A stretch of DNA of 64,000 nucleotides, from positions 134,786 through 198,785 of IMG/VR virus record IMGVR_UViG_3300022843_000001; one strand, 5' to 3'. Below, one piece after another: positions 43,901 to 59,041 of this stretch. The position numbers and the translations under genes were made by a program. The notes under the pieces were generated by a model that did no database searches, was not told where the DNA came from, and was given only the letters and a program-made list of their open reading frames with translations. The stretch's first letter is position 1. Each line of letters begins with the position of its first letter. This DNA comes from a virus.

Positions 43901-44217
43901 AGTGCTATAGCTTTTGAAATACTGTCTTGATCTACATTATCGTTGTCTATACCAATAATATCTTCTTTAAAAGTATCAGCTTTTTGACCAGAATTTAATA
44001 TTCTTGTAAGAGCATTCTCTATTTTTAAAAGAGTAGGTTTAGATTCATCTTTACCCGGAAGTCCTTCAACACTATTAGTATTTACAAGTCTGTGAACATC
44101 TTCAGGTGTAATATTCCATACATTAAAACGCATGTTTTTTTCTGTATTAGGATCTATTTCTACACCATTAAATTCTTGAATGTATTTTAAATATAGTTCT
44201 GGTGAAGGACAGGACAT
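37906..44217 (-). CDS. Virion-encapsidated RNA polymerase (catalytic part) with zincin-like motif
   Basis: Motif A ADATAQG (42535), motif B RAFAKDPTMVFIYG (42211-42237), IHGIDS and motif C VHD (41614); HEIVH at 40984-40998; position equals N4 gp50. Confidence 0.85.
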   Translation of the reverse strand: MSCPSPELYLKYIQEFNGVEIDPNTEKNMRFNVWNITPEDVHRLVNTNSVEGLPGKDESKPTLLKIENALTRILNSGQKADTFKEDIIGIDNDNVDQDSISKAIALHEVMEAVKGESDKARNNDVQMSQLSVDGILPVLPLSRLAASIGRKWMYKNQARYKSMEESPKTAAEIEQLYYTQGIAALELLEEKGYVNFHDDVTTIRDYTDSEAITQTFESKKITTTNAKSVSLNTSKLGISKYKVSSSGKLTDTLSQESSHFLNRTAADLSGTELGTIVDTLSVVRHVTQPSNITMPYTGKQDGSVDVAQSDPDGNVQSPSTQSARQKLFDNPLYVNNTVHDLFALIKEETDKTGESATKLLTDKFKNKPLMIKSLFGIKTSDDHSVDRQESVSGQNLSKTVPLDDIIETYNQLVNSEGNPEELHMIMKGGRNIRLYYDNSVLNAHASKQSRHMLTSGTQSVKVKSFDFNRLVYSIKETLDDKELTYKEIVEGGNANLDAALQDFKSYENAKTLQRKIVALSNLPERFQGVDYAALLVTLKGVQDIRDNTGDTLQTELMDSADATAQGGTLTFQQALGTNANVETFMESIGIITDADGNLVLDENKIDDVYALMSDATSRFINKKDSLVMSPDIGQGNVRELLQTTLNLLFGGTKEGERAFAKDPTMVFIYGQGPKGAVKSMADTLAKRIIDNLADENIRDYLGDLMDSPSLKNADSKDLKDISGLYSNIKSALITKGVPKQLYEIMQAEIYEAYLKDFRKDGADIYNLATQVKDNHRMKVLPFGAVLDGIGIDQVKTYGMPLTKIVEVSSPLTGDSDLAKEGGHTVLTRKQELFQSIMDVSVIHGIDSGLMYHAINEVLGDSGAIVVHDQIIGTTETVRLVEEAYVRLNKRLLGEYDTHQQVLNSIEFYDPALAKSDKFTKLKAKIDARVAAKAKIANSERMNMKTNALIGNSIKAREFAGADANTEVETATVPNAEPATANPSNSAMKDAFDNAAPNTTTTASEPETATESLTDVETILEQYKEESPIIKSFLEGSNSSNVRIGEEFEFDTETDTVVISENSTDRKTRIELIEHEIVHSFTAGVVIDWVKRFANKTSGTSTQLDLNMAYIDKTMNHVLRKTFSNKTQERMDYIDINSSQETMLSEFIAIMNSEPDVAAEVYSSLNNTSKNKLAKVLEFVKNKVITIINNVTYADFKIGDPNAEKLFSAINGVIVSGKSKREEDINFITDMQKQFETVLFSGKNRQTTSAADMQDKASLRYLNAAVSSMLNSKIERKGKRLLNTLDKNMKRLFPLYSDAADKLSGIYEGSEALQGLVQTITGEGTNKVNKADLLADSALLEGQQISSIAFQKSEFKKALTGVSKDEVSTIGRFVTQLPLHDYFVFASDITTSSQIDAEVTRLETEIKKVSKSAIRDVDHLIERNVERTVETEAGTKEGGKLYNLASTYAMSDSATFSVDIRKLLALKSIQKIGNKEFESFLAKTDLVNLVKDNSIANRVTMLGVEGTEGLRDSMLPEYYKESHQTKAIELKDLRSYEIGEETGWKVLRNPTKDNLGIVYKKLIDSTELRGAYTDIKLSSTDVDVTSASQINYSNVVKAESNKFKVVLSPAEKETLGIETDFVNTLVRGAAHSMAIKDSQIIRNNIVMSENRFLATNDTDLGKLKEVVDSDNMDNPWFVKLDDGKAYNTLDKSIRARYKPVGGRISDVKGTSGVKFSDQITLVRKDMSHLLIGGFSKSLIDNHHMKWAMRIVKDLTAGSKIGMVVVNPAKWAIDVMSNVAYLSVAGASPLFIGKNFLEISKDYDKYQNITNEIIQLKVRLVGTKDNQAIKDRITALKTQIDNTSVGNLGNKGFINSLGSDLVAKNSDASSGFQADVQTALEYMLTDRKGNKNVVAHFIKTLNKIGFQGEDFLSHIGGIVGKSGYGKGAQQQLDMVTDRIKELKTDEDVVGYVSQFTTSPNSEIVRLGSSVTDRIDVFAKETLYRHAIQNEKMTPSQARIHVLDSFPDYKENLPMAVKQLSDVGILMFPSYWLRIQKAIYRMVKDKPVNLSTEMVIQEYVTGNMNTIFSANVLNMSTRYGGIAHMPLESVGVGSVVPENVFKGVFY

Positions 44218-47200
44218 TAAATTTTACACCTTGGATTTAGTTTAGTATAAAGAGCTTCAGCTTTTTTCTTGTCAGAAATAACTTGTGAAGGTTCATTATC
44301 AAATGATTCTGTCATAACTACCTCTGTTTGTACATCAGGAAAAGCTTGTTCAAATGCACTAAGTATTTCAGGGTACTTATCTAAAGAAGTAAAATTTCTT
44401 AGTAAGTTTTTAACTTCAGCAATATTAGTATAACCAGCTTCTTTAAGTTTTGTAATTATTTTAGGTAACGTAGGAGTAATTGTAGTAGAAACAATTGCTT
44501 GTTTAGAAGGACTATCTTCAACAGAAGCAATTATACTATCAAATGAACTTAGTTGTTTATTTATAGTGTCACGTTTCTTTTGTACTTCTGGTGTTACTTC
44601 AACAGTTTTTATTTCTTCAACAGCAGCTTCCTGTTTTGTAGAAGGAGTAGGTTTAGGACTAGGAGCAGCAGGTCTTTTAGGACCTACAACATTTTCTTTC
44701 TTTTCTGGTCCAACAACTAATTCTTTAGCAGCAGTAGCAGTATCTGTAACTGTTTTAGCAACTGAGTTGTAAGCATTTTCTAACTGTTTATCAAATTTAG
44801 CCATACCTTCTTCAGTTTCAAGATTAGGCATATCAGGCATATTAGGTAAGTCAGGTAAAAATTCCTTAACTTTTTTTGTAAAATCTTTAGAACTTTCTGA
44901 GTCTAAAAGACTTATCAATTCTTTTGTTGATTCAGCATTTTTAAAATACTCAACTAAACCTTTAGATTTAATATTTTTAGACAACTCAGCTATTTTAGCT
45001 TTAGCTTCTGTTCTAACAGGTTTACGTATTTTATTTGATTCTAGTTTTAACTTGTTAGTAAGTACACCTAGACTAACTTTGTTTTTGCCTTTTTTAACTG
45101 AATCAAGTTCTTTGTATTTATCTAGGGCAGCCTCAACAATTTCTAAAGAAGGTAAATCTGCTACTTTGCCATTTATTGTATCTGAAACAAGTTTAAATAC
45201 AGAGTCTGCTCCATTTTCTGAAAGAGCTGGACCTTTAGCAATATCTTTTAGCTCTGGCTTAATATTGTCTATAGTTGTTAAAGTATCGTTACTTTGACCT
45301 ATATTTTTTAAAGCTTGTTTTTTATTAGCAAGAGTTTTCTGTAATTTCTTGGCTAGGTCCGGGTGTTTTTTATCAATAACAGATATTACTTTTGTAAGAT
45401 CGTTTATTTCCATATCTTTAACAGCAGCTAAAACAGTATTAGAAGACTTAATTCCGTTTCTAAGACCTAACTCTATAACACCTCTAGCAGTACTAGATTC
45501 TAGATTTTTAACAATTTCTACACTTGCTGTACCAAGTGCAGTAACAGTTTTAACTAAGTTTTCTACAGGAACATTTTTTAGAAGTTTTTTAGCTTTTTCA
45601 GTACTTTTGTTTACAACATTAGTACCTACTTTGCTTACAACTCTTCCTACACTAGTTGCCATTAACTCTGTTTTTACAAGAGCTTGATCACTTCTAAATT
45701 GACTAATTAACTTAGTTTTTATAGAGTTAAATTGTTTTGGATCAGCAGCAGCTTCAGTAGTTATGTTCCCATTAGTTTGTATTTTTATGGTTTCTACACC
45801 TACTACGTCATCAGCTAGTAAGTCATCAATAGTTTTAGCATTTAAAACAGTGTCAATATTTTTTTCTTTGCCTGCTATTTCTTTATCTGCTATAGCTGTT
45901 CTTGCTGTTTCAGATTCAGACAATACTGCACGATCTGTTTCAGACAATAGTTCAAAACTTGCTTTAGTAAGTGCATCTTGACTTATTTCTTTAACTTTTT
46001 TACCACCTCTTACAGCAACACCTGCAGTTCCTACAACAGTGTCTAAAGCTGCACCAGCAACAACTCCCGGAGCAACAGTAGCACCTTTAACACCACCGCC
46101 TACCATAGCACCTACTAAAGCAGAGTAGTTGGCTTCATCTATATTACCTTCTTCATTAAGTTCATCTAAAGCAGACCTAATAGAAAAGTCATCCATCTTA
46201 GCTTGTAGTATTGAATGCCAAGTTTGTAAATATTCTAGTGTTGCTTCTAATCCGCCAACAGCAGACACTTTTACAGCAGCTTTTAGTACTCTTTTAGCAA
46301 CTTCTACACTGTATTTTTTAGGTATAGGAGACAATGCTTTTGAAATGTCTTTTGCATATTGTTTAGTAGCGTTTTTAGCAACTGTAACACCTGCTATAGA
46401 TGGCAAAGCACTCATAAATATAGCTCTATCAAACATCATAAGTGCTAAAGCAGCAGGAGCATTAACTAATTTGTGCATAACTGAAGACGCTTCACCATTT
46501 TCTTTAATGTAAGCTTCTTCATTTTGTTGTAATACAGCAGCAGTTGATAAACTTACTTGACTAGCTTTTTTACCAACAGACTTAGTAGCAGCTAGTGCTT
46601 TTTGTAATACGTTTAATTTTACACCTGCATCTTTAGCAGCTACTGCATCAGTAACAGCATCTGATATATCACCTATTGCATTAGCACCACGAAAAAGCTT
46701 TTTACCAAGCATAGGTAAACCACCAATACCAGCAGTACCAAGAGTACCAGCAATGCCTGACGCTATTGTTCCAGTTAAACTGTCTACAGCTAGTTCTGGA
46801 AGTACTTTTGCAGTTGTACTTATAGCGTCTATTACATTACCTGCTGCGTCTAAATACTCACCTTCTCTTAAACTTATTCTAGCGTTAGCTAAACTGTTTA
46901 TGCCTGAAGATGCTGCTTCATTAAGCTCTTGCCTTACCGTGGCTCTAACGTTACTTCTAACGTCAGCTTCTTCCATTAGATTAGGGTTAGATTCTCCTGA
47001 AGCAATATTTTTTATGTTGTTAAATTCTCTATCAACAGCAGCAGTACCTAATGAGTACAAGTCATTAGCAAAACTAGTACTATTTGCAAGACCACCATTA
47101 AATCTGTCTATGTTGTTAGCTTGTTCTTCAGACACAGGAGTAACTTTAGGTTCAGGTGTAAGCTTTTGTTGCTTACTTGCTATTTTGTCTTTTAAAGAAT

Positions 47201-47276
47201 CAATTTTCATGTCCAATAAAGAAGACGAGTAGTCTACCTGATAAGCATTTCCAGCATTTCTAAATATTTCAGACAT
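44217..47276 (-). CDS. Ejection protein; probable detached N-terminal domain of vRNAP (1019 aa)
   Basis: Gly/Ala-rich hydrophobic segments and long helices; TAATG-coupled to the vRNAP gene. Confidence 0.65.
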   Translation of the reverse strand: MSEIFRNAGNAYQVDYSSSLLDMKIDSLKDKIASKQQKLTPEPKVTPVSEEQANNIDRFNGGLANSTSFANDLYSLGTAAVDREFNNIKNIASGESNPNLMEEADVRSNVRATVRQELNEAASSGINSLANARISLREGEYLDAAGNVIDAISTTAKVLPELAVDSLTGTIASGIAGTLGTAGIGGLPMLGKKLFRGANAIGDISDAVTDAVAAKDAGVKLNVLQKALAATKSVGKKASQVSLSTAAVLQQNEEAYIKENGEASSVMHKLVNAPAALALMMFDRAIFMSALPSIAGVTVAKNATKQYAKDISKALSPIPKKYSVEVAKRVLKAAVKVSAVGGLEATLEYLQTWHSILQAKMDDFSIRSALDELNEEGNIDEANYSALVGAMVGGGVKGATVAPGVVAGAALDTVVGTAGVAVRGGKKVKEISQDALTKASFELLSETDRAVLSESETARTAIADKEIAGKEKNIDTVLNAKTIDDLLADDVVGVETIKIQTNGNITTEAAADPKQFNSIKTKLISQFRSDQALVKTELMATSVGRVVSKVGTNVVNKSTEKAKKLLKNVPVENLVKTVTALGTASVEIVKNLESSTARGVIELGLRNGIKSSNTVLAAVKDMEINDLTKVISVIDKKHPDLAKKLQKTLANKKQALKNIGQSNDTLTTIDNIKPELKDIAKGPALSENGADSVFKLVSDTINGKVADLPSLEIVEAALDKYKELDSVKKGKNKVSLGVLTNKLKLESNKIRKPVRTEAKAKIAELSKNIKSKGLVEYFKNAESTKELISLLDSESSKDFTKKVKEFLPDLPNMPDMPNLETEEGMAKFDKQLENAYNSVAKTVTDTATAAKELVVGPEKKENVVGPKRPAAPSPKPTPSTKQEAAVEEIKTVEVTPEVQKKRDTINKQLSSFDSIIASVEDSPSKQAIVSTTITPTLPKIITKLKEAGYTNIAEVKNLLRNFTSLDKYPEILSAFEQAFPDVQTEVVMTESFDNEPSQVISDKKKAEALYTKLNPRCKI

Positions 47277-47282
47277 AGTTAG

Positions 47283-49289
47283 TTACTTACCTTGTTCTTC
47301 TAATAAAAGTTTCAAGTATTCTGCTTGTTGTTTTTCAGCTCCTGATTTAGGTTTAAAATCTTTTAGTTTTTGATCACCTGTTCTAAGAGCTTCTAATAAC
47401 TGTTTAATTTTATCTTCATCAACTTTACTTTTTAAATCTCGAAGTTTTTGGAGTTTTACATTGCTTGCAGTTTTTTCAGCTTTTTCTTGAGCTTGTTCAA
47501 AATTAAAATTTTGTAGTCTAAAATCAGTACCATTAGGGTTAGTTCTTTCAGGTCGATCTCCAGCACTGTAGTTAAAAATAGAAGTATCTTTATACTTAGG
47601 ATTTTTTGCGTCTACTTCACTTAAACCTTTTTGAGCTGCAGCTTTTTCTGCTTCAGTACTATTAGGGTCTAATGCTATAGCTATAAAACCTCTTTTATCA
47701 GCAGCAACTTTTTGAGATTTAACTTTTGCTCTAGCCTCTAATTCTTTAGCTTTTGTAGTTATTTCTTTAGTTTTAAGTTCAGGTGTGTACGTATTACCGG
47801 GACCAGAAAGTATTCTATTTTCAGCAGGTGTAATATCTCTTTCTTTTGTGCTAATAGGAGCTTCTACAGGTTCTTCAACATCATCACTAGTATCTATTTC
47901 ATCTTCAGAAATTATAGGCTTAAGCTTAATTTTAGGCTTAGTTTTAGGTTTATTTCCACCTAGTTTAAAGTCTCTACTAACTCCTGTTTGTTCTTCAATA
48001 AACTTTTGAGCTTGTTTTTGTCTTTCTTCAGAAGTAGTAGCTTGCTGTATAGAATTTTTTAATATTTTGTTAATAGAGTCATCGTACTGAGAAATTAAAC
48101 TATTATATAGAGACTGTTGTTGTTGAAATTTTTGATCATTACTTTCACTACCACCAATTTTTCTACTGCTAGAAGCTTCTTGGTTTTGTTGAGCACCTAG
48201 TGCAATAGCAGCCATAGTATCATCGTTAGACATCATATCTGATATGTCTTTGCTAAACGTACCATCACCATTTATTAATTTTAAAGCTCTCATAGCTCTA
48301 ATAGTGGCTGCTGGTCCAACTTTAGATTGAGACTGACTAGCAGCAACTATAGTTTGTAAATCATCTATAGACATATCAGGAGAATTTAAAGGAAATAAAC
48401 CAAAAAATGTTTCAGGAGTAAGTGCTTCACTGATCCATTTTATAGCACCTTTACTTTGAGGAACATTTAATGTTTCTGAAATATCTTTAAAAGCATCAGC
48501 ATTTTCTTTTTGACTTATAGAACCAGTTTTAAATGCGTTAGTTCCAATATTAGTAGTATTACTATTTCCTGAGTTGCTAAATATTTTGCCAGCAAAATTT
48601 AATCTATTTTCAGCATTTTTACTTAATCTTTCTTGACTTTTAACATCTAACACACTGTAATTTTCAGTAGCTGTTTGTTGCATTTGTGCTATTTCTGTTT
48701 CACTTAGACCAGCTTCTCTTGCTAAAGCAGCTACATCTGATTTTATTTTAGCAGGGTCTTGATACAGTCTAGGGTTATCAATCATATTTTGGATAAACCC
48801 ATCCATAAGATCATCTTTTCTTTTATAACCATCTACTTGATTTAGATTTATAGAAGTATTTCTTCCACCGTCACTAATAGTTCTTGTACCAGAAGTTTGT
48901 GTTTGGTAACCCGGAGAATTAAATATAGCTTGTTTTGTGCCTTGTTCCATCTCAAAAGAAGGCTGCATATCTTTAGCTTGTTGAATTAAATTGCTCATAG
49001 CTAAATTTTTATCTATACCTCTTTGTTTTTCTAAATCAAAAATACGTTGTTCTTCAACTACAGCTCTTTGACCTTCGTTTTCACGAAAATTTTGTTGTCT
49101 TTCAAAATTGGCTTGTTGTTGCATAACAGCATTTTGCTCAAGCTGTGCATTTCTAGCTTCTTGCATTTGTGCATTTATACTAGCAAGACCTTTTTGAGAA
49201 CTCTCAATAGAACGTGCAGCGTTAGCAAAAGCTTGGTTAGAGCCACTAAAGTTAGGATTTATTCTAGATCTAAAAAGTTCACCAGCCAT
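47283..49289 (-). CDS. Ejection/internal virion protein (N4 gp51-like position)
   Basis: 668 aa, Gln-rich, Cys-free; synteny. Confidence 0.6.
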   Translation of the reverse strand: MAGELFRSRINPNFSGSNQAFANAARSIESSQKGLASINAQMQEARNAQLEQNAVMQQQANFERQQNFRENEGQRAVVEEQRIFDLEKQRGIDKNLAMSNLIQQAKDMQPSFEMEQGTKQAIFNSPGYQTQTSGTRTISDGGRNTSINLNQVDGYKRKDDLMDGFIQNMIDNPRLYQDPAKIKSDVAALAREAGLSETEIAQMQQTATENYSVLDVKSQERLSKNAENRLNFAGKIFSNSGNSNTTNIGTNAFKTGSISQKENADAFKDISETLNVPQSKGAIKWISEALTPETFFGLFPLNSPDMSIDDLQTIVAASQSQSKVGPAATIRAMRALKLINGDGTFSKDISDMMSNDDTMAAIALGAQQNQEASSSRKIGGSESNDQKFQQQQSLYNSLISQYDDSINKILKNSIQQATTSEERQKQAQKFIEEQTGVSRDFKLGGNKPKTKPKIKLKPIISEDEIDTSDDVEEPVEAPISTKERDITPAENRILSGPGNTYTPELKTKEITTKAKELEARAKVKSQKVAADKRGFIAIALDPNSTEAEKAAAQKGLSEVDAKNPKYKDTSIFNYSAGDRPERTNPNGTDFRLQNFNFEQAQEKAEKTASNVKLQKLRDLKSKVDEDKIKQLLEALRTGDQKLKDFKPKSGAEKQQAEYLKLLLEEQGK

Positions 49290-49296
49290 TATATTA

Positions 49297-49761
49297 TTAC
49301 CCTATTGCACTACCATCTACATTAGCTGCTTTAGCTCTTGCCATTCGGTCTATATATTCTTGACTACCAGCTTCCACACTATTTAATGCTAAACCATTAC
49401 GAGTTCTTTCCATAAGATCTGCATTATAAGAAGTTGCATTATTAGCAAGACTTCTATTCATACCAGCTAGCTCAATACCAAACTGTTTTTTTCCTTGCTT
49501 ACGCATTTGGTGAGCATTATACATACCATATAGGCTACCTAAACCTTGAGCAGCTAACCCAAAGTTTTGAAATCCATTTAAAGATTCTGGTGCTTTTGGG
49601 TAATTTTGATCACCCATTAAAACACCATTACCTGCATTCATTCTGTAGTCTTGTGGTTTATAACTAAAATCGTCATAGGAAGCTGCTAAACTAAATTCTT
49701 TAGCAGGGTCGTATATTTGTGTTGTTGTAGGAATTTTGAAATTACTGTAAGTTTCACCCAT
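49297..49761 (-). CDS. Small internal virion protein (N4 gp52-like)
   Basis: FGLAAQGLGSLYGMYNA amphipathic Gly-rich segment; synteny. Confidence 0.6.
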   Translation of the reverse strand: MGETYSNFKIPTTTQIYDPAKEFSLAASYDDFSYKPQDYRMNAGNGVLMGDQNYPKAPESLNGFQNFGLAAQGLGSLYGMYNAHQMRKQGKKQFGIELAGMNRSLANNATSYNADLMERTRNGLALNSVEAGSQEYIDRMARAKAANVDGSAIG

Positions 49762-49778: not shown

Positions 49779-52520
49779 TTAAACTACACCTAAAGTTAAG
49801 GCGTTTTTATGATAGTTGCCCACTACTGTACCATAATCATACATGCTAGAATAGTTGTATTGTATTGGTCCAGCCATAAACCTATATGTGTCAGGACTAT
49901 TAAGAAAAGCTAGGTAGGTTGGGTCTAATCCATTTTCTTGTGCTTCTATTAATCTAGCTAGTTCTTGTGACCTAATATCAAATTGATTATTTATTTCTAG
50001 CATCTCTGCTTGAAGCTCTAGTATATCTGCATTTATATCAGCTACTATCATATTACTAAACTGTGTGACGCTTTGTGTAATAACAGCAGGATCACTCATA
50101 CCTGTTGAACCTGAACCAGTTTGGCTAGTTAAGTAAGCAGCACCAGCAGCAACAACTACTTTTAAAAATTCACTATCTATACTAGATATTATAGCAATTG
50201 CTATAGAAATAATAACATAATTAGCTAATGCAACCTGAAAAAAAGCAGCTAAAGATAGTTTTGTAGGGTCAAAAGTTATCAGAGTGTAAACTATTAGTAC
50301 TATTTCTAGTAAATCTGCAAACGCTGAAGTTTCATACCAAGCCACTTCAGTTATCTGTACAGAATAAAAATTCATCCTTAAAGCTAGGGTGTACAACTGT
50401 AGTTGTTCAACTGGAGTTAAACTATCAATAGAAAAATGAGACAACAGTATAGAAAAGTTATCATCCCCTAGTTTACTAAGGCTCATGTTTTCTTGCCCAT
50501 TACCTAAAATAAACTCTATACCAGACATGTTTGTTAATACAATTGTAGAACAAGAAGTAGTAGACACCTGTTTTCTCATAGTAAGAGTGTTTACGTTAGT
50601 TACAGTATGGCTGTAAGTACCAATTGGACCTGAATCAAATATGGTAGTAGAAGCATTTTGTGTAGACCATACTACAGCTCGTTTTACATTTTGTTCTAAA
50701 AACGTAGCATAATACCCTTGGTTGTCTACTGTTGTATTAAAATCAACAGCTTCTGTAATTACTAATGTATAAAACATCTCATAAAGAATTTTAGAAACTA
50801 CTGTTGCTGTATCAGTAGGGTTTACAGCGAAGGATAAAAATCCTTCTGATATACCAGCAATATTAGGGTTAGCTTCTATTTGTTGTATTATGTCGTTAAA
50901 CTCTAAGTCTAAAGTACCTAATAGCCCTACTATACCATCATAGTTTTCTTGTCCTACACTAACTACACTGGCAGAAACTGTGTTAGACCTAAGTATACCA
51001 ATAGGCATAAACTCTAAGTTACTTAAACTACTGCTTACCATTTTAACATCAGGGTAAGTATTACTACTTATGTCATACACCCAATATTTCCATTCAGCAA
51101 TTTCGTCAATATAGTAAGTAACAATTACATAAGAAATAATTCTATAAGCAGGTCTAGTAATCACACTAGTCAAAGTTTCTGTTAAAGGAGATGGCATATT
51201 AGTGTTATCTGTGTCTACAGGGTTAGCAACACTATAAGTAATAGTAGTTGATATGCTGTGTTTTCCTTCAGCTAAAGCGGTAGCTTCAAAACTGTCTTGT
51301 GTAGAGATACTTTCTATACTTACAACCATAGTAACAGAGGAACTTAACAAGTTTACTGTTTCCGGGGTTATAGTAAAACCTAAACCTGTACCACTAGAAG
51401 AAATTTGGTTTATGGTAGTTCCTGCAGAAGCATCACCACCAGAACTTGTCACTGTAAAAGTTATTACATTTCCGTCTACATCTACACTATCTACTGTTAA
51501 CACATCATCATTGTCCAAAGTTATTGTGTCTAATGCACTGTAGAAATTAGTACTGTCGCTTCCAGAACTAGAGTACGAACCATTACTGCCAGAATCATCG
51601 TAGTTTGCCTCTGTTTGATCTTCTAACAAGGTATATTCATAAGGTAATGAGTTTGCTTCAGTACTAATAGTAAAGTCTGTGTACGATGTACCAGCTAGCA
51701 ATACTACAGTATCAACTGAGGTAAAATGGGTACCGTTTGTAGCTGTTCCTGTGTAACTTAAATTAACTGTGACAGTTTTGTTAGCAGGTATAAGTCTATC
51801 GACACTAACTGTGTACATTAGTGTGTTATCTCCTTGAACTACTTCTGAATAACCAGATAAATAAAACGTAGCAGTTTCTCTTAGTCTCTGTACTGTTAAT
51901 TGGTAGTTATTAGCTCCTGCATTGTACGTAACAGCAGATAAAAAATAGCTATCGAAAGTACCGTACTCGTCACTAAAAGTTAATGTATTAAGATGGGGAA
52001 GATAACTATAAACATTTTGTAAATAGTGTTTAAAATAAACTTCTTTTGTAGGGTACTTTTGTACTGCACTAGTAATATTAACTGTGTAACCAGTTATAGA
52101 AAACAAAGCATTAATAACAGCAGATTGGTCTATAGTATTTTTACGTACATTTGTTGTAGGTAAAGCATAAGGATACTCACCTTCTTCTGCGTAATTGTAG
52201 TAACCGTCTATTTTTCCTTGAGCAACTTTAGTGTACTTATTAAACGGAGATATTAATGCAATAGCAGAATTTTTTGTGTACTCAAGTGCTATTTTAACTA
52301 ACGCATCTTCTTCTAGATCTGTAGTTGAAGGATAAACTTTCTGTGAAACATGTTGTACTTGTACTACGGTCTCATCTTCGATACCAAATATACCTACTAC
52401 AAATTCCAGTAAAGGCATAACAATATCATCCCATACTGTTTCTACAGCCTCTACTACTCCTTCAACAACATCTTCTACTATGTCTATTATATCTTCAATA
52501 ATTTCTACAACAGCACCCAT
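49779..52520 (-). CDS. Virion structural protein (N4 gp53-like) with Calx-beta-like insertion
   Basis: 913 aa; hydrophobic C-terminal helices; TVTVNLSYTGTATNGTHF...LLAGTSYTDFTI segment. Confidence 0.65.
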   Translation of the reverse strand: MGAVVEIIEDIIDIVEDVVEGVVEAVETVWDDIVMPLLEFVVGIFGIEDETVVQVQHVSQKVYPSTTDLEEDALVKIALEYTKNSAIALISPFNKYTKVAQGKIDGYYNYAEEGEYPYALPTTNVRKNTIDQSAVINALFSITGYTVNITSAVQKYPTKEVYFKHYLQNVYSYLPHLNTLTFSDEYGTFDSYFLSAVTYNAGANNYQLTVQRLRETATFYLSGYSEVVQGDNTLMYTVSVDRLIPANKTVTVNLSYTGTATNGTHFTSVDTVVLLAGTSYTDFTISTEANSLPYEYTLLEDQTEANYDDSGSNGSYSSSGSDSTNFYSALDTITLDNDDVLTVDSVDVDGNVITFTVTSSGGDASAGTTINQISSSGTGLGFTITPETVNLLSSSVTMVVSIESISTQDSFEATALAEGKHSISTTITYSVANPVDTDNTNMPSPLTETLTSVITRPAYRIISYVIVTYYIDEIAEWKYWVYDISSNTYPDVKMVSSSLSNLEFMPIGILRSNTVSASVVSVGQENYDGIVGLLGTLDLEFNDIIQQIEANPNIAGISEGFLSFAVNPTDTATVVSKILYEMFYTLVITEAVDFNTTVDNQGYYATFLEQNVKRAVVWSTQNASTTIFDSGPIGTYSHTVTNVNTLTMRKQVSTTSCSTIVLTNMSGIEFILGNGQENMSLSKLGDDNFSILLSHFSIDSLTPVEQLQLYTLALRMNFYSVQITEVAWYETSAFADLLEIVLIVYTLITFDPTKLSLAAFFQVALANYVIISIAIAIISSIDSEFLKVVVAAGAAYLTSQTGSGSTGMSDPAVITQSVTQFSNMIVADINADILELQAEMLEINNQFDIRSQELARLIEAQENGLDPTYLAFLNSPDTYRFMAGPIQYNYSSMYDYGTVVGNYHKNALTLGVV

Positions 52521-52527
52521 AATTAAA

Positions 52528-53007
52528 CTACCTAGAATTATGTAAAATTTTATCCAATTTCTGTTTTATTAGACTAATGTTTATGATAACAGGGGTACCA
52601 AACTCATACCATTTTTTAATACTTTTAACTGTTAGTAAACTTTTTAAGTTAATAACTCCTTCTTTTTTATGGGGAATAAAACTAAGAGTCTTTACAGGTG
52701 AATAAGCATTTCCATAGAATATACTTATAAGAAGTGTTAGTGTACCTACAGGATTTCCTTTACCATAAAACAAAACTCCTTCAGTTTTGTAAGGACTTAG
52801 TTTCTTAAAATACAAAAAACAAGACCCATCAATTAAACAATACGCTGTGTTCTCAGCTATACACTTTAACATACGTTTTTTGTGTATATTAGTGTCACTA
52901 TCAGAAACTAAGGATTCTACAACAGAGTAGTGGTTATCTATATCTTGTTCATTACATTTACGGATGTAGTTATCATTCTGCAGTAAATTAATAAGTTTGT
53001 ATTTCAC
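52528..53007 (-). CDS. Putative GNAT-fold N-acyltransferase
   Basis: IRKCNEQDIDNHYSVV beta1-alpha1 start and GNAT-like secondary-structure order; weak. Confidence 0.4.
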   Translation of the reverse strand: MKYKLINLLQNDNYIRKCNEQDIDNHYSVVESLVSDSDTNIHKKRMLKCIAENTAYCLIDGSCFLYFKKLSPYKTEGVLFYGKGNPVGTLTLLISIFYGNAYSPVKTLSFIPHKKEGVINLKSLLTVKSIKKWYEFGTPVIINISLIKQKLDKILHNSR

Positions 53008-53008
53008 A

Positions 53009-53248
53009 TTATACAGAAGTAGTTGAGTGGCAGATAGAAACTAACATTTTTACGGACAAAGCATCTACATCTATATCATCAAATTCTGCTGTGTCAATAT
53101 CATAATCATTGGCTATTGTAAGCAGTACTATTACTACTCCTAAACTATCAAGCTCGCTATCCATAAACATACCGTCCATGAGAACAGGCAACCCATTCTC
53201 ATAGACAATACAACTATTTATGTTAGCTAGTGTTTCTTCTTTAGTCAT
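53009..53248 (-). CDS. Acyl carrier protein-like protein
   Basis: 79 aa, acidic; DSELDSLGVVIVLLTIANDYDI matches ACP DxGxDSL-helix II; Ser35 aligns with the phosphopantetheine Ser36 of E. coli ACP. Confidence 0.75.
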   Translation of the reverse strand: MTKEETLANINSCIVYENGLPVLMDGMFMDSELDSLGVVIVLLTIANDYDIDTAEFDDIDVDALSVKMLVSICHSTTSV

Positions 53249-53778
53249 TAGGCTGGCAAATCATTTAGTATATCTTCATATAGTGCAGAAGTTTTAGCTT
53301 CATTAACAATAGTTGGAGCAGCACCTGTTTTATTAACAGAATAGTAAATAGCCCAAGTTTCTAGTGTTTTAGCTAGTACTTTTTGTTTAGCATCTACTTT
53401 AAACCCTAGTGTTTGAGCTGTAATTAGGTCGTCTTTTTTATCTTCCGTAGTTTTTTGTGCTTCAAGAAGTAAATTTTTACTAATACTTTCTATGACCTGT
53501 TTATCAACTAAAAGTTTTTGTGCTTGCAGTAAAGCAGAAGTATCTATCTGTATTTGTGTCTCTAGATAAATTTTTGCAGCTGTTTGAATTACTGACTGCA
53601 TAGCTCCAAGATACACTTTAGCGTAGTCAACACCATTAATAGCACCTGAATCGTACTGAGACTTAATGTGAGCAGTAATACTCTCCATCATATCATCAAA
53701 AATACCATCTCCTTGTACTTTATAAGTAGAGGAGTCAGTAGTTACGTTATTTGTAAACTCAGTAAAAGCTAAGGTCAT
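53248..53778 (-). CDS. Structural protein (N4 gp54-like)
   Basis: GDGIFDDMM...GVDYAKVYLGAMQ motif; synteny. Confidence 0.75.
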   Translation of the reverse strand: MTLAFTEFTNNVTTDSSTYKVQGDGIFDDMMESITAHIKSQYDSGAINGVDYAKVYLGAMQSVIQTAAKIYLETQIQIDTSALLQAQKLLVDKQVIESISKNLLLEAQKTTEDKKDDLITAQTLGFKVDAKQKVLAKTLETWAIYYSVNKTGAAPTIVNEAKTSALYEDILNDLPA

Positions 53779-54342: not shown

Positions 54343-55566
54343 TTATTTGCTAGCGCAAACATACCCTTTAAGTAAACGTTCTTCTCGCAAGATAAGACCT
54401 GCGTACCAAAAATTGTAACTAAAGAAACCTTGAGTTGCATAAGGATTACTAAGTTCAATCTTACCGGGAGACTGACTGTTAAACTTAATTTTTCCTTTAC
54501 CTTTTAGTCCTACAATAGCAAAAGAGCCTTTTGTTGGAAACAAGATAGGGAAAACATCAAAGTTATCACGATCACCAGCAGTACCAGAAGTATTATCAGT
54601 ACCACCACTAGAAGATAGATCACCTACGTAGTTCTGAGGTACAACACTACCTTGAGCAGCGTAAACTAGAGCAGACTCAGATTCGATGAAACGAACATCA
54701 CCCATAGAACCAACTTCACCTTCAGCTAGGCTAGCTGCTGCTGCATACTTGTATGCAGGGATATAAGCGAACTCTTCAGCGTTACCTGTACCACGAGTCA
54801 AGTTATCAAGATCGTACTTGATTTCTGGACCAATAACAGCGTAGTAAGCTTTATTGATTGCACGAGTATCAACTTTAGTGTCACCTGAAACAACAGTAGT
54901 GTTCTTTTCAGCACGATTACGTACCAATCGACGAGTAATTTTACGGATCATATCGTATGAAATCCGTGAATCATTATCATCTGTACCGTCAGTTTCAGCA
55001 GTATCTTGACCAATTTCTGCAATAGCAGTAGCACTTCCAACGTACTGGATAGTAGTAGTAGCTAGCAAATCAAGCTGTGTAAGATCTTCGTACCGCATAT
55101 TAGCTAGGTGTCCTAACTCTTCACGGTATTGAATCTGTACCATGTCCTCAGAGAACATATCAACTTCATCAGTATAATCAAGCATTTCACCGTAACGAGC
55201 AAAACCTGTTTCAATAGTAACTTTTTTAATTGTTACTTTATTAGCTGCACCAGAACCTTCTGATAGCGTAGGCATACCTGCTGAAACATCAGTGATGTTA
55301 CGTGCAGTAAGATAACCCTTAGTACCAAATTCTGAGTCAGTTCCACCTACTTGACTACTAGGATCAAGTTTACGATCATAAATGTGTAACCATTTACTGA
55401 CCTTAAAAGTTTTACCCATTTTGAGAGGCATAGATCGACGATCAGCAAACTGACCATAAATATTTACAACGTTAGCTGCTTTAACACCAGCTTTGTCGTA
55501 ATAATGCGTAATTGTATTCGGACCAGAAGTACTGTTAGTACCATTTCCGTAGACGTTATCTACCAT
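54343..55566 (-). CDS. Major capsid protein (N4 gp56-like)
   Basis: 407 aa; MPLKMGKT, YGEMLDYTDE, GEVGSMGDVRFIE, PGKIELSNPYATQGFFS. Confidence 0.92.
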   Translation of the reverse strand: MVDNVYGNGTNSTSGPNTITHYYDKAGVKAANVVNIYGQFADRRSMPLKMGKTFKVSKWLHIYDRKLDPSSQVGGTDSEFGTKGYLTARNITDVSAGMPTLSEGSGAANKVTIKKVTIETGFARYGEMLDYTDEVDMFSEDMVQIQYREELGHLANMRYEDLTQLDLLATTTIQYVGSATAIAEIGQDTAETDGTDDNDSRISYDMIRKITRRLVRNRAEKNTTVVSGDTKVDTRAINKAYYAVIGPEIKYDLDNLTRGTGNAEEFAYIPAYKYAAAASLAEGEVGSMGDVRFIESESALVYAAQGSVVPQNYVGDLSSSGGTDNTSGTAGDRDNFDVFPILFPTKGSFAIVGLKGKGKIKFNSQSPGKIELSNPYATQGFFSYNFWYAGLILREERLLKGYVCASK

Positions 55567-57103: not shown

Positions 57104-59041
57104 TTAATTGGTTTGTAAACTATCAATAGATTTTAATCCTATTTGTGTGTCTCTATCATGATCTTTTTTGACTAGTTCATCAGATAAGTCTTCACCTGTA
57201 GCTTTTTTCATAAAGTCTAAATCTTTAACATCTGTGTCGGAATCGGTAAACCTAGCTTTAGCTTCAGCTAATACAGCATTCGCAGTTTTTAAACGAAGAT
57301 CAGCTGAGTTTTCTTCTGCTCTAGATTGTCTTTCTAGTATCTCCACTTTCTTTAACTGCAATTCAAGAGATTTCATTTCTTCTAAATATGGATCAGGCTC
57401 AGGTCTGTATTCTTCTATGGACTTTGCTACATCAGGCATTTTATGAAGTTTCATTATCTGAGCCATTATAATTTTACGTACACCGGGATCTTCATTAGGC
57501 CCATTAGTTTGAAGTAAGAAAGATAGTTCTTGGCTTTTAGCAGCATTATCTTCAGCTGTAGATACTTCAATATCTATATCTACTTCACCAGCTAAGTCAT
57601 CCCTTCTAATAGGAACATGTTGATCATTCGTTATACGTATTATTTCTTCTTCTTGTAGCCATACGGAGTTGTATGACATCCATTTACGCATAAGAGGTTT
57701 CATTAAGTTTTCAGCTACGTTTCTTACAATATCTAGTCTACGTACTGATACAGCATCTAATACTCCCCCTGCTGCTCTAGCAGTAGATCCTAGTCCTTGC
57801 CCGTTAATACCACCTGAGAAACTTTTAATACCTGTAATAGCATCTGTCTCGTTATTATTAAGTTCAAGCATAGAAAACATACTGTTAGGTAAGTTATTAT
57901 AAGAACCTTCATAAAAATCAGAAGAATTAGTGTTGTACTCAAAATTTCCTCCTGCAAGAAATCTTTTTTTGTTAAGTGTATCTAACGAACCTTTACGTAT
58001 ACCTTTCTGCCCATTATTGGAGTTAGCCATATTATCTATAGCACCACGTTTAATAGCAGTAGAGACTTTTTGGTTATCCCCTATCATTTCAGCGTTAGCT
58101 TCACCTGTCATTTGGAAAGGTATAGAATTATGTGCTACTACTAAAAAAGGTATTTTCTTATCAGGATAAGGATTACTTTCTAGCCTGATAATCACGTTGT
58201 TAACCCAAGTACAAATAATAGGTTTAGCAATACCTGTGCCATCTATATCGTAGTTTCCCCAATACTCATGAATAATAAGTTTCTTTCTAGGTTTATCTTT
58301 AAACTCAAAACTACTACCTTTCTTTTCGTGTTCAGGAGTATAGTCATCACTATCTCTAGCCATATCTTCAGATACTTTATTTAGTGCTTTATCGTTATAC
58401 TTTTTATTTACACGTAGGGTACTAAGGTCACTCTCATACCTATGTACCATAAACTGACACTTATCTAAGTCTCCTTGACAAGTAGGATCAATGTAGATGT
58501 CTTCTATACGACAAGTTTCTGCAAATGGTTTATTTACTAGTACTTTAAGTTCCTTTACTGTTTTGATACCTATTTGTACAGGTTTACCACTGTAAGGATC
58601 TAAATCATACACTGGGTAATCTTTTTCTACTTCTTCATCTTCGTAATCCCATGAACACTTAACAATTAGTGTGCCTTCAGTAGTAAGTAGTTTTATGCTA
58701 TCCGTAATAAACTTGTACCTATTAAACTTACGAGTAAATTGGTAGTTTAGTATTAACTGGTTCTGTTCTGCTGCTTGACGATCTTCAGCTGTAATAGGAG
58801 TACATTTAACAATGTCTGCTGAAGATAGAAAAGGGTCTTTAAGAGAAGCATGTTGCCACTCGTCCTGACGCTTTATATCTCTCGATACTATCTTCGATTT
58901 ACCCTTCTGCTCATTACCATAAGGTTCACCGTTATACTCTTTCTTCCAAGTTTCTACCTTAGAGACAGTTTCTAGTCTAAGGCTGTCAGCACTTGTAAGG
59001 TCATCTTTTAAACTTGATAATATTTTTGCTTTGTCTACCAT
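57104..59041 (-). CDS. Portal protein (N4 gp59-like)
   Basis: 645 aa; GKSKIVSRDIKRQDEWQHASLKDPF, IDPTCQGD, GQKGIRKG. Confidence 0.92.
   Translation of the reverse strand: MVDKAKILSSLKDDLTSADSLRLETVSKVETWKKEYNGEPYGNEQKGKSKIVSRDIKRQDEWQHASLKDPFLSSADIVKCTPITAEDRQAAEQNQLILNYQFTRKFNRYKFITDSIKLLTTEGTLIVKCSWDYEDEEVEKDYPVYDLDPYSGKPVQIGIKTVKELKVLVNKPFAETCRIEDIYIDPTCQGDLDKCQFMVHRYESDLSTLRVNKKYNDKALNKVSEDMARDSDDYTPEHEKKGSSFEFKDKPRKKLIIHEYWGNYDIDGTGIAKPIICTWVNNVIIRLESNPYPDKKIPFLVVAHNSIPFQMTGEANAEMIGDNQKVSTAIKRGAIDNMANSNNGQKGIRKGSLDTLNKKRFLAGGNFEYNTNSSDFYEGSYNNLPNSMFSMLELNNNETDAITGIKSFSGGINGQGLGSTARAAGGVLDAVSVRRLDIVRNVAENLMKPLMRKWMSYNSVWLQEEEIIRITNDQHVPIRRDDLAGEVDIDIEVSTAEDNAAKSQELSFLLQTNGPNEDPGVRKIIMAQIMKLHKMPDVAKSIEEYRPEPDPYLEEMKSLELQLKKVEILERQSRAEENSADLRLKTANAVLAEAKARFTDSDTDVKDLDFMKKATGEDLSDELVKKDHDRDTQIGLKSIDSLQTN

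Follow-up and report, generated by a model that had tools for sequence, protein, structure and literature searches.

A carrier protein and a GNAT-fold protein encoded in the virion operon of marine N4-like phages: a candidate acyl-transfer cassette

Introduction

Why should a tailed phage keep a gene for an acyl carrier protein (ACP), and beside it a gene for a small protein of the GNAT fold, in the midst of the genes for its tail and its ejected proteins? The question is raised by a stretch of 64,000 nucleotides (hereafter the window), which spans positions 134,786 to 198,785 of the IMG/VR virus record IMGVR_UViG_3300022843_000001. An earlier note, made from the letters of the window, had marked two short reading frames between a gp54-like gene and the gene of a 913-aa virion protein. 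It had proposed that a host enzyme loads the ACP and that the GNAT-like protein passes an acyl group to Gly2 of a virion or ejection protein.

Results

The locus comprises the following features, with coordinates given in the window.

53248..53778, minus strand: gp54-like tail-tube protein, 176 aa (match to phrog_2050, a virion structural protein, at E 4e-27; syntenic with the N4 gp54-like genes)
53009..53248, minus strand: divergent ACP, very likely a carrier protein, 79 aa (invariant L-D-S-L-G)
52528..53007, minus strand: 159-aa protein with a GNAT fold and a GTG start, from a new sequence family
49779..52520, minus strand: gp53-like tail plug, candidate acceptor, 913 aa (phrog_2220, E 8.5e-28)
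52221..52520, minus strand: N-terminal extension of the plug, a hydrophobic/acidic helix followed by W..I.MP.LE and FGIEDETVV motifs
49297..49761, minus strand: gp52-like small ejection protein, 154 aa, MG start (phrog_2646, E 9e-8, and position)
47283..49289, minus strand: gp51-like ejection protein, 668 aa (by position only, between the gp52-like gene and the vRNAP genes)

The genes thus run in the order gp54-like, ACP, GNAT, gp53-like, gp52-like, gp51-like and vRNAP; the 668-aa protein found no match in the Pfam and PHROG family scans. In N4 itself, gp54 is the tail tube, gp53 the single-copy tail plug, and gp52 an outer-membrane channel resembling T7 gp14 (PMC13434306). The two short ORFs, their coordinates and their tight coupling, as the earlier note described them, are borne out by the ORF list and the DNA junctions: the start of the ACP gene overlaps the stop of the gp54-like gene in the sequence TAATG, one base separates the ACP stop from the GTG start of the GNAT gene, and a 7-nt spacer lies between the GNAT gene and the ATG of the 913-aa gene. 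Its product does begin MGAVVEIIEDIID, and the 154-aa gene downstream does begin MG. We accept the GTG start of the 159-aa ORF because its homologues start MKYQ... with ATG, and neither short ORF is a product of chance, since their homologues adjoin each other in cultured phages and in metagenomic loci. The gp54-like protein has 176 aa here and is longer in relatives (191-311 aa). The reading of the two ORFs as C-terminal pieces of a split gp54 was rejected, as PT11-V19 has a full 509-aa protein at the gp54 position and then both genes; so was the reading of the 198.8-kb record as a concatemer of three units, since both the cassette and the capsid gene are single-copy in it.

The 79-aa protein is strongly acidic (pI 4.05; 15 Asp and Glu against 2 Lys and Arg) and contains ELDSLGVVIVLL, in which the serine is residue 35. 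Pfam and PHROG scans of this protein gave nothing, NCBIfam gave weak DltC matches only, and a homologue search with the single sequence recovered only itself. An AlphaFold2 model built from five sequences is of low confidence (pLDDT 57.7); its helix order is ACP-like, with helix 2 running from residue 34, and a Foldseek search with it (pLDDT 58 when rounded) returned nothing below E 4. The family to which the protein belongs, with 100 database clusters, is more informative. G19, L33, D34, S35, L36, G37 and C73 are invariant in 98 of its sequences, and all 22 PDB matches of the family profile at E<=0.1 are carrier proteins (ACP, NodF or DltC chains), NodF at E 1.1e-4 among them. In these alignments the L-D-S-L-G motif falls on the DSL phosphopantetheine serine of solved ACPs, and Ser35 is the predicted phosphopantetheine site; PF00550 itself is matched at E<=0.01 by five of the 98 relatives (best 9.9e-5). 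The ACP call of the earlier note, with its conserved Ser35, is thus upheld by the 98-sequence alignment and the PDB profile matches, and we regard the 79-aa protein as very likely a carrier protein. No phosphopantetheinyl transferase, AMP-ligase or FabD-type acyltransferase was found in the phage genome. Loading of the ACP by a host enzyme, which had been proposed at the outset, is therefore the sole option, given a phage genome that has no phosphopantetheinyl transferase.

The basic 159-aa protein (pI 9.4) belongs to a family of roughly 135 clusters, all of about 160 aa, which eludes sequence searches. The protein itself drew nothing from Pfam and PHROG scans, a locus search with its single sequence found nothing, and a PDB sequence search gave no match. 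GNAT-clan Pfam models matched none of 121 family members at E<=1; among the 25 of 64 Pfam families listed for these members, none matched more than three of the 121, and no acyltransferase family (HlyC included) was present. The structural model, by contrast with these sequence searches, is of high confidence (pLDDT 92.3, pTM 0.87), and its best 50 structural matches are all GNATs: Ard1 leads (4pv6; Z 10.7-10.8, rmsd 3.3-3.5 over 134-135 residues), Gcn5 (Z 10.4) and RimI (Z about 10) score similarly, and Foldseek reaches E 4e-4. The GNAT call of the earlier note is thereby sustained: the protein almost certainly has a GNAT fold, and it founds a new sequence family of GNATs. Residues conserved in the family include C18, D22, H26, Y66, H113, S123, S129 and K150, with Y66 at 99%, H113 at 92% and H26 at 90%. 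A hallmark of GNATs is the Q/R-x-x-G-x-G/A pyrophosphate-binding loop between beta4 and alpha3. Here that loop reads Y81-G-K-G-N-P-V-G88, and across the family G82 (54%), G84 (28%) and G88 (24%) are poorly kept; such a degenerate phosphate-binding motif could fit a donor other than CoA.

In the cultured Alteromonas phages R22Y and PT11-V19 the homologues adjoin each other, in the same two-gene form as in the present phage, and some 20 different metagenomic loci bear the cassette as well. ACP and GNAT genes are neighbours in all full-length loci except one, and their position inside the structural operon is strictly fixed across distant lineages, so that the pair in the virion operon to which the earlier note pointed emerges from the synteny comparison as a conserved unit. 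Departures from this arrangement are few: a divergent relative (L018) has the GNAT gene without an adjoining ACP gene, and another (L031) keeps part of the plug extension while the cassette is absent. Classical schitoviruses have neither the cassette nor the N-terminal plug extension described below, and the statement in the earlier note that the gp54-gp53 interval of N4 is not known to hold such genes is borne out in Pollock and pYD6-A, where nothing lies between the two genes.

In most relatives a third gene, for a stripped-down Cys-His-His ketosynthase, stands between the ACP and GNAT genes. Its triad is intact in at least 11 loci (L003, L006, L007, L008, L025, L026, L029, L032 and L034 are among the ketosynthase-bearing loci), which argues for real thioester chemistry in the cassette. 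The enzyme resembles ketosynthases of the KAS I/II type (FabB/FabF) in the contexts of its triad, TC(A/S)(A/S)G, HGTGT and GHTQG, and in a conserved Lys and a C-terminal NG.GG motif; it is far shorter, at 276-279 aa against about 410 aa for FabB/FabF, and its scores all lie below the family cut-offs. A ketosynthase was found neither in the window nor in the whole 198,785-bp record, and no homologue was found in 50,697 phage records. The gene has been lost independently at least three to four times with ACP and GNAT retained (SH-like support 0.93-0.99 for each sister pair), and the present phage is one of the lineages that lost the ketosynthase but kept the other two genes. The earlier note missed both the ketosynthase of the relatives and the fact that a GNAT-like gene is already known at the head of an ejection module, as T7 gp13 and P22 gp14.

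In tblastn, the 913-aa plug weakly matches the genes that Pollock, pYD6-A and VBP47 carry at the gp53 position. Its hydrophobic/acidic extension of about 100 residues is specific to the clade: it is absent from the gp53 homologues of Pollock and pYD6-A, and within the phage collection it occurs only in two isolates, both of which bear the cassette, a co-occurrence that comes from a single clade and so lacks phylogenetic independence. Among 16 relatives, the second residue of the plug is Gly in 5, Ser in 9 and Ala in 2, and so is small in all 16; in the next gene (gp52-like), only 4 of 12 have one of these three residues there. A small residue at this position is common among phage proteins generally. 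The acceptor named in the earlier note, Gly2, therefore fails as a rule in both genes, and a Gly2-specific, myristoylation-like rule for the plug is, on the aligned N-termini, wrong.

Discussion

That the ACP and the GNAT-fold protein function together is likely, and their probable task is the acylation of some product of late infection. More tentatively, and with somewhat less than an even chance of being right, we read the cassette as a late-expressed two-gene acyl-transfer unit of a marine N4-like clade, with a virion or ejection component as its target. In such a unit, a host phosphopantetheinyl transferase would convert the ACP to its holo form at Ser35, and host enzymes would load the acyl group, which in most relatives the phage mini-ketosynthase, whose gene is lost here, may build or extend. 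The GNAT would then use the ACP arm, not CoA, as its acyl donor and pass the group, during assembly, to an amine of a virion or ejection component. The best candidate acceptor would be the N-terminal region of the gp53-like plug, whose second residue is always small (Gly, Ser or Ala). The cassette is linked to the virion by its constant position within the structural operon, where stops and starts overlap or almost touch, by the restriction of the plug extension to the cassette clade (a single clade), and by the contrast at residue 2 between the plug (small in 16 of 16) and the next gene (4 of 12). That the acceptor is a virion protein is nonetheless a doubtful proposition, and that it is the plug N-terminus in particular is unlikely.

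It is also possible that the GNAT-fold protein performs no chemistry at all. It may instead be the IVP-A of the N4 clade, a non-catalytic factor that loads the plug or ejection proteins, with the ACP-like protein as its partner or chaperone; we consider this improbable. The podoviral IVP-A proteins (T7 gp13, PF11090; P22 gp14, PF11039) are acetyltransferase-like, and score as acetyltransferases with HHpred (Hardies et al., 2016; PMC4819975), while Pfam describes T7 gp13 as a probable scaffold protein. Comparison of the gene orders (T7 gp12-13-14-15; P22 26-14-7-20-16) places the phage GNAT in the position of IVP-A, directly after the tail tube and heading the ejection block, and the proteins share a small size (about 140-160 aa) and a GNAT-type fold. 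Foldseek against viral models recovers small uncharacterised podovirus proteins (phiKT, Cd1, PPpW-4) and the CRP-4 GNAT (E 0.004-0.03), and hhalign of the GNAT family against the P22 gp14 family (an alignment of 18 sequences) yields a topologically sensible 87 columns at P 0.013. However, the hhalign probability against that family is only 3%, PF11090 and PF11039 found no match, and hhalign with T7 gp13 or P22 gp14 as a single sequence reached no significance, so that the sequence similarity falls short of significance. In N4-like phages, unlike T7 and P22, the plug gene separates the GNAT gene from the gp14-like gene, and T7 and P22 have neither the carrier protein partner found here nor the ketosynthase of the relatives. 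Against a non-catalytic role, too, the GNAT family preserves His, Tyr, Cys and Asp residues as invariantly as an enzyme would, the partner ACP has an invariant phosphopantetheine motif, and the catalytically intact ketosynthase of most relatives is hard to explain without chemistry.

Where chemistry is granted, its product may be something other than a modified virion protein. The R22Y homologue of the ACP has been published as an auxiliary metabolic gene (PMC11705849), and malonyl-ACP decarboxylases of GNAT type are known (PMC8666670). The cassette could thus be a lipid helper module, a reading that we hold to be quite unlikely, in which the GNAT makes acetyl-ACP by decarboxylating malonyl-ACP, as MadA/YiiD and the CurA/GphF loading domains do, and the ketosynthase, where present, condenses acetyl-ACP, so that late in infection host fatty-acid synthesis could start without FabH. 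ACP, KAS I/II-type ketosynthase and decarboxylase would form a coherent initiation set, and the GNAT-like decarboxylase of GphF stands at rank 42 among the Foldseek matches of our model. Auxiliary metabolic genes, however, are usually located in variable islands, whereas this cassette keeps one place in the structural operon across distant lineages. The ACP has diverged too far from cellular ACPs to pass Pfam; repeated loss of the ketosynthase would leave only the production of acetyl-ACP; and FabD or other fatty-acid synthesis genes were not found in the phage. Very unlikely, in our estimation, is the manufacture of a small N-acyl compound (an N-acyl amino acid, a signal like an acyl-homoserine lactone, or an acyl-polyamine) acting on the host or its neighbours. 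Such a role has precedent in LuxI, FeeM and OlsB, GNAT-fold enzymes that make small amides from acyl-ACP. SbzI, at rank 32 among the Foldseek matches, is reported to use a carrier protein as donor and a small molecule as acceptor (PMC11685415). ACP and ketosynthase alone would yield a 3-oxoacyl product. Yet Pfam families of the autoinducer-synthase or OlsB type match none of the 121 GNAT-family members, the cassette is located beside, and translationally coupled to, the plug gene, and the closest folds belong to acetyltransferases of protein N-termini and lysines, although rank among folds counts for little.

The proposed acyl-transfer unit would have counterparts among known systems. Carrier-protein-dependent GNATs include SbzI of altemicidin biosynthesis (PMC11685415), and other GNATs lipidate ribosomal peptides, as in goadvionin and the selidamides (PMC8784127). 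The GNAT there, as in the phage cassette, is reported to adjoin a dedicated carrier protein and a condensing enzyme of fatty-acid or polyketide type, and to acylate an amine, which for the RiPPs belongs to a ribosomally made peptide; those systems, however, are bacterial secondary-metabolite clusters, whereas the cassette is phage-borne, has two genes within a virion operon, and has a donor and acceptor that are proposed only. No sequence-level relationship was found between the phage GNAT and these enzymes. The toxin-activating acyltransferases offer a second comparison: HlyC/ApxC and CdiC transfer acyl groups from acyl-ACP to lysines of RTX toxins and class IV CdiA (PMC8510554, PMC8339906), and lipidation of the delivered CdiA by CdiC helps it to engage the target cell (PMC8510554). 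They too are acyltransferases of some 160-170 aa that use acyl-ACP and are encoded alongside a large protein, one that must engage the envelope of another cell, much as the plug would as candidate acceptor; but they draw on the ACP of their host, whereas the cassette brings a phage-encoded ACP. Among the closest known genes is vB_AmeP-R22Y gp30, a direct homologue of the 79-aa protein at the same position and with a GNAT-family gene next to it. Its authors regard it as boosting the fatty-acid synthesis of the host by itself, and their paper does not mention the adjoining GNAT gene, the ketosynthase of relatives or the virion-operon setting (PMC11705849). We found no published case in which a tailed phage uses enzymes of its own to acylate its virion proteins.

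An N4-like clade that lipidates its own plug, at the small N-terminal residue of the extension, or another ejected protein, by means of an ACP-fed GNAT, is an unlikely but consequential prospect. Lipidation of either might help the plug to leave the tube or to engage the host outer membrane, and, by extension, true acyltransferases would be the ancestors of the acetyltransferase-like IVP-A proteins in T7 and P22. The role of these proteins has been vague for decades, and virion acylation, if true, would give the podoviral IVP-A genes (T7 gp13, P22 gp14) their first concrete biochemical lead; the published view of the R22Y gene, as a metabolic helper that acts by itself, would then need correction. 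The question is directly testable, because the cultured phages R22Y and PT11-V19 share the two-gene form.

Gene order in the virion operon

The minus strand of the window carries an N4-like (Schitoviridae) virion operon with two small ORFs, of 79 and 159 aa, whose neighbors are as follows.

Virion genes of the window, portal first in operon order
57104-59041, minus: portal
54343-55566, minus: major capsid protein (phrog_1357, E 2e-81)
between major capsid and gp54-like genes, minus: gp55-like gene
53248-53778, minus: gp54-like gene (tube), 176 aa (phrog_2050)
53009-53248, minus: 79-aa ORF, between the gp54-like gene and the 159-aa ORF
52528-53007, minus: 159-aa ORF, before the gp53-like gene
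49779-52520, minus: gp53-like gene (plug), 913 aa (phrog_2220)
after the gp53-like gene, minus: gp52-like gene, 154 aa
after the gp52-like gene, minus: 668-aa gene
37906-47276, minus: two long ORFs of 1019 and 2103 aa, meeting at 44217, in the virion RNA polymerase position

In phage N4, gp54 is the tail tube (12 copies) and gp53 the single-copy tail plug, whose residues 29-56 and 670-716 form a hydrophobic knot corking the tube; gp52 is the outer-membrane channel, T7 gp14-like, and gp51 the periplasmic tunnel (PMC13434306). By these assignments the two small ORFs lie between the tube and plug genes. Tight coupling from tube to plug gene is visible in the DNA: the first stop and start overlap in TAATG, TAA-T-GTG marks the next junction, and 7 nt separate the last pair; every sequence detail reported in the earlier note is present there.

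The tube protein, 176 aa in the window, has 271 aa in the closest relative (L003:3177-3992), the added length being a run of KQVEE..SKI..TKQGLL-type repeats; it measures 191-311 aa in other relatives, and 509 aa at the same position in the cultured Alteromonas phage PT11-V19. Schitovirus genomes are usually 60-80 kb, and the whole record, at 198,785 bp, of which the window is bases 134786-198785, is about three times the usual size. A simple concatemer is ruled out, since the record has one copy only of the cassette and of the capsid gene. The window by itself appears to carry a complete set of N4-like genes, and the remaining 135 kb may reflect a genuinely large genome or a chimeric assembly.

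A probable carrier protein and a GNAT-fold protein

Alone, the 79-aa protein found no match in Pfam or PHROG. In the PDB, a profile of five family sequences reached NodF (E 3e-4), ACPs of Streptomyces and DltC, and a profile of 98 sequences found 22 chains at E<=0.1, all 22 of them carrier proteins, with the LDSLG of the family aligned onto their phosphopantetheine serine. Positions G19, L33, D34, S35, L36, G37 and C73 do not vary among the 98 sequences, five relatives match PF00550 (E<=0.01), several bear the JGI product name "acyl carrier protein", and with a pI of 4.05 the protein is strongly acidic. A structure model from five sequences is of poor quality (pLDDT 58); the order of its helices is that of an ACP, which we do not count as evidence. 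The matches exclusively to carrier proteins and the invariant S35 bear out the earlier suggestion of an ACP, and the protein is very probably a carrier protein. C73, near the C-terminus, is the same in 98/98 family members and unusual for ACPs; it might offer a second site, for a thioester or a disulfide.

Among 1.8 billion representative proteins searched by profile, the 159-aa family comprises 135 clusters, nearly all of 150-170 aa. None of 121 members matched a Pfam GNAT-clan model (E<=1), and the family profile matched no PDB sequence. AlphaFold2, given the 121-sequence alignment, predicts a classical GNAT topology (pLDDT 92.3, pTM 0.87). Foldseek against the PDB placed Ard1, N-acetylglutamate synthase and FdhC best (E 4e-4 to 1e-3); in an exhaustive VIA structure search the best 50 matches were all GNATs, with Z scores of 10.7 for Ard1, 10.4 for Gcn5, 9.9 for RimI and 9-10 for Naa10/50/60/80. 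A second structural search left GNATs on top, and searches of the ESM Atlas and a viral model library agreed; weak fold matches included small proteins of podoviruses (phiKT, Cd1), uncharacterised so far, and the CRP-4 GNAT. The GNAT assignment of the earlier note thus stands, and the protein is, on its predicted structure, a GNAT-fold member of a new family.

Conserved positions in this family are C18 (88%), D22 (84%), H26 (90%), Y66 (99%) and H113 (92%), and likewise S123, S129 and K150. H113 directly follows beta5, and N-terminal acetyltransferases such as Naa50 and Sulfolobus Ard1 have a catalytic His close to that place, a correspondence that we treat as no more than a lead. In typical GNATs a glycine loop between beta4 and alpha3 binds the CoA pyrophosphate; across this family the loop is degenerate. 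With a pI of 9.4 the protein is basic, which is usual for partners of acidic ACPs. These two features are consistent with a carrier-protein donor, and neither proves it.

Relatives and loss of the ketosynthase

Both genes are real and conserved, and occur at the same position in the cultured Alteromonas schitoviruses PT11-V19 and R22Y. In most relatives, from IMG/VR and other metagenomic contigs, a third gene of 276-279 aa separates them. In searches of Pfam, NCBIfam and the PDB its product weakly matches ketosynthases of the FabF/FabB type. It has an invariant Cys in TC(A/S)(A/S)G, His in HGTGT, Lys, and His in GHTQG, with an NG.GG motif towards the C-terminus; judged by these motifs, it is a stripped-down KAS I/II-type condensing enzyme (KS) with its putative catalytic residues complete.

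Gene orders at about 21 distinct loci, by HMM census
ACP-KS-GNAT-plug: at least 11 loci, including contigs cut inside the cassette
ACP-GNAT-plug: 5 loci (window, PT11-V19, R22Y, L009, L027)
tube gene followed immediately by GNAT: 1 divergent locus (L018)
plug, cassette wholly absent: 1 relative (L031)

In a quick FastTree run on the GNAT protein (about 160 columns, midpoint root), forms without the KS pair with KS-bearing sisters (window with L003, support 0.93; L027 with L008, 0.98; L009 with L006, 0.99), and the two Alteromonas phages are nested among KS-bearing loci. The KS has therefore been lost at least three to four times, ACP and GNAT being kept every time, and these two are the selected core of the cassette. 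At the divergent locus (L018:1-748, contig only 989 bp) the GNAT-family gene directly follows the gp54-like gene with no carrier-protein gene between, and the downstream protein begins MGGLFGGG, not with an acidic helix.

Proposed function and alternatives

The 198,785-bp record was searched for a ketosynthase, a phosphopantetheinyl transferase, an adenylating ligase and a FabD-type transacylase, and none was found, so activation and loading of the ACP must be host-supplied, and the host would presumably phosphopantetheinylate it. Our tentative reading, which we hold with less than even confidence, is that the cassette carries out acyl transfer dependent on a carrier protein, is expressed along with the virion genes and acts on a virion or ejection component. 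The GNAT would take an acyl group from the phage holo-ACP, rather than from CoA, and pass it to an amine on that component. We infer the nature of the acyl group and also its acceptor, for which the N-terminal region of the plug would be the leading candidate. Carrier-protein-dependent GNATs have precedents in SbzI (PMC11685415) and RiPP lipidation (PMC8784127), and CdiC/CdiA is a precedent for acyl-ACP-dependent lipidation of a delivered protein (PMC8510554).

The position itself has parallels. T7 gp13 (IVP-A), its P22 and epsilon15 counterparts and a gene family of phiRIO-1-like phages score as acetyltransferases, and these genes are flanked by the tubular tail B gene on one side and IVP-B on the other (Hardies et al., PMC4819975); a GNAT-like gene heading the ejection module is, by that work, a published, unexplained podovirus feature. 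The GNAT might accordingly be a non-catalytic assembly factor of IVP-A type with the acidic protein as its partner, which we find unlikely; sequence homology of the 159-aa family to the IVP-A group (T7 gp13/P22 gp14) was not demonstrable by hhalign (P22 gp14 alignment, P 0.013, probability 3%). The R22Y homolog of the 79-aa protein was published as an "auxiliary metabolic gene", an ACP serving fatty-acid synthesis of the host, in a paper silent on the adjoining gene (PMC11705849). A fatty-acid initiation helper set, with the GNAT as a malonyl-ACP decarboxylase comparable to MadA/YiiD (PMC8666670), appears quite unlikely, and synthesis of a small N-acyl compound very unlikely. Full-text literature searches found no ACP-GNAT or ACP-ketosynthase-GNAT cassette described in a virion operon; the cassette would be a variant on carrier-protein-dependent GNAT acylation and on the IVP-A position, as such unpublished. 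The acyl-transfer question is directly testable, since two cultured phages (R22Y, PT11-V19) carry the cassette.

Association with the tail plug

In the classical schitoviruses Pollock and pYD6-A, the gp54-like gene is directly followed by the gp53-like gene, with nothing between, and the plug starts at about residue 100 of the window plug. The added N-terminal region is present in all cassette-bearing phages and consists of a variable-length hydrophobic/acidic helix followed by the motifs W..I.MP.LE and FGIEDETVV..VS.K in that order; in a set of 50,697 phage records it occurs only in two isolates, both with the cassette. Because the N-terminal part of the N4 plug contributes to corking the tube (PMC13434306), the extension probably sits, by analogy, within the lumen of the tube or close to it.

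Residue 2 of the plug is Gly in 5, Ser in 9 and Ala in 2 of 16 relatives, which contradicts the Gly2-specific, myristoylation-like acceptor of the earlier note; in the gp52-like protein, one of these residues stands there in only 4/12. Methionine aminopeptidase removes the initiator Met before Gly, Ser and Ala, so the processed plug would begin with a small residue, a type of N-terminus that NatA- and RimI-type enzymes accept. The correlation of cassette and plug is suggestive only, since it comes from a single clade, small second residues are common and one relative is an exception. In that relative (L031:2786-6236) a 944-aa plug directly follows the gp54-like gene, with no ACP, ketosynthase or GNAT; FGIEDETVV is kept, the N-terminus is polar and lacks MP.LE, and the locus is a natural "cassette-minus" comparator. 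In two further relatives (L009:5476-8325 and L015:1336-4089), precomputed Pfam annotation places Calx-beta domains (PF03160) in the middle of the plug.
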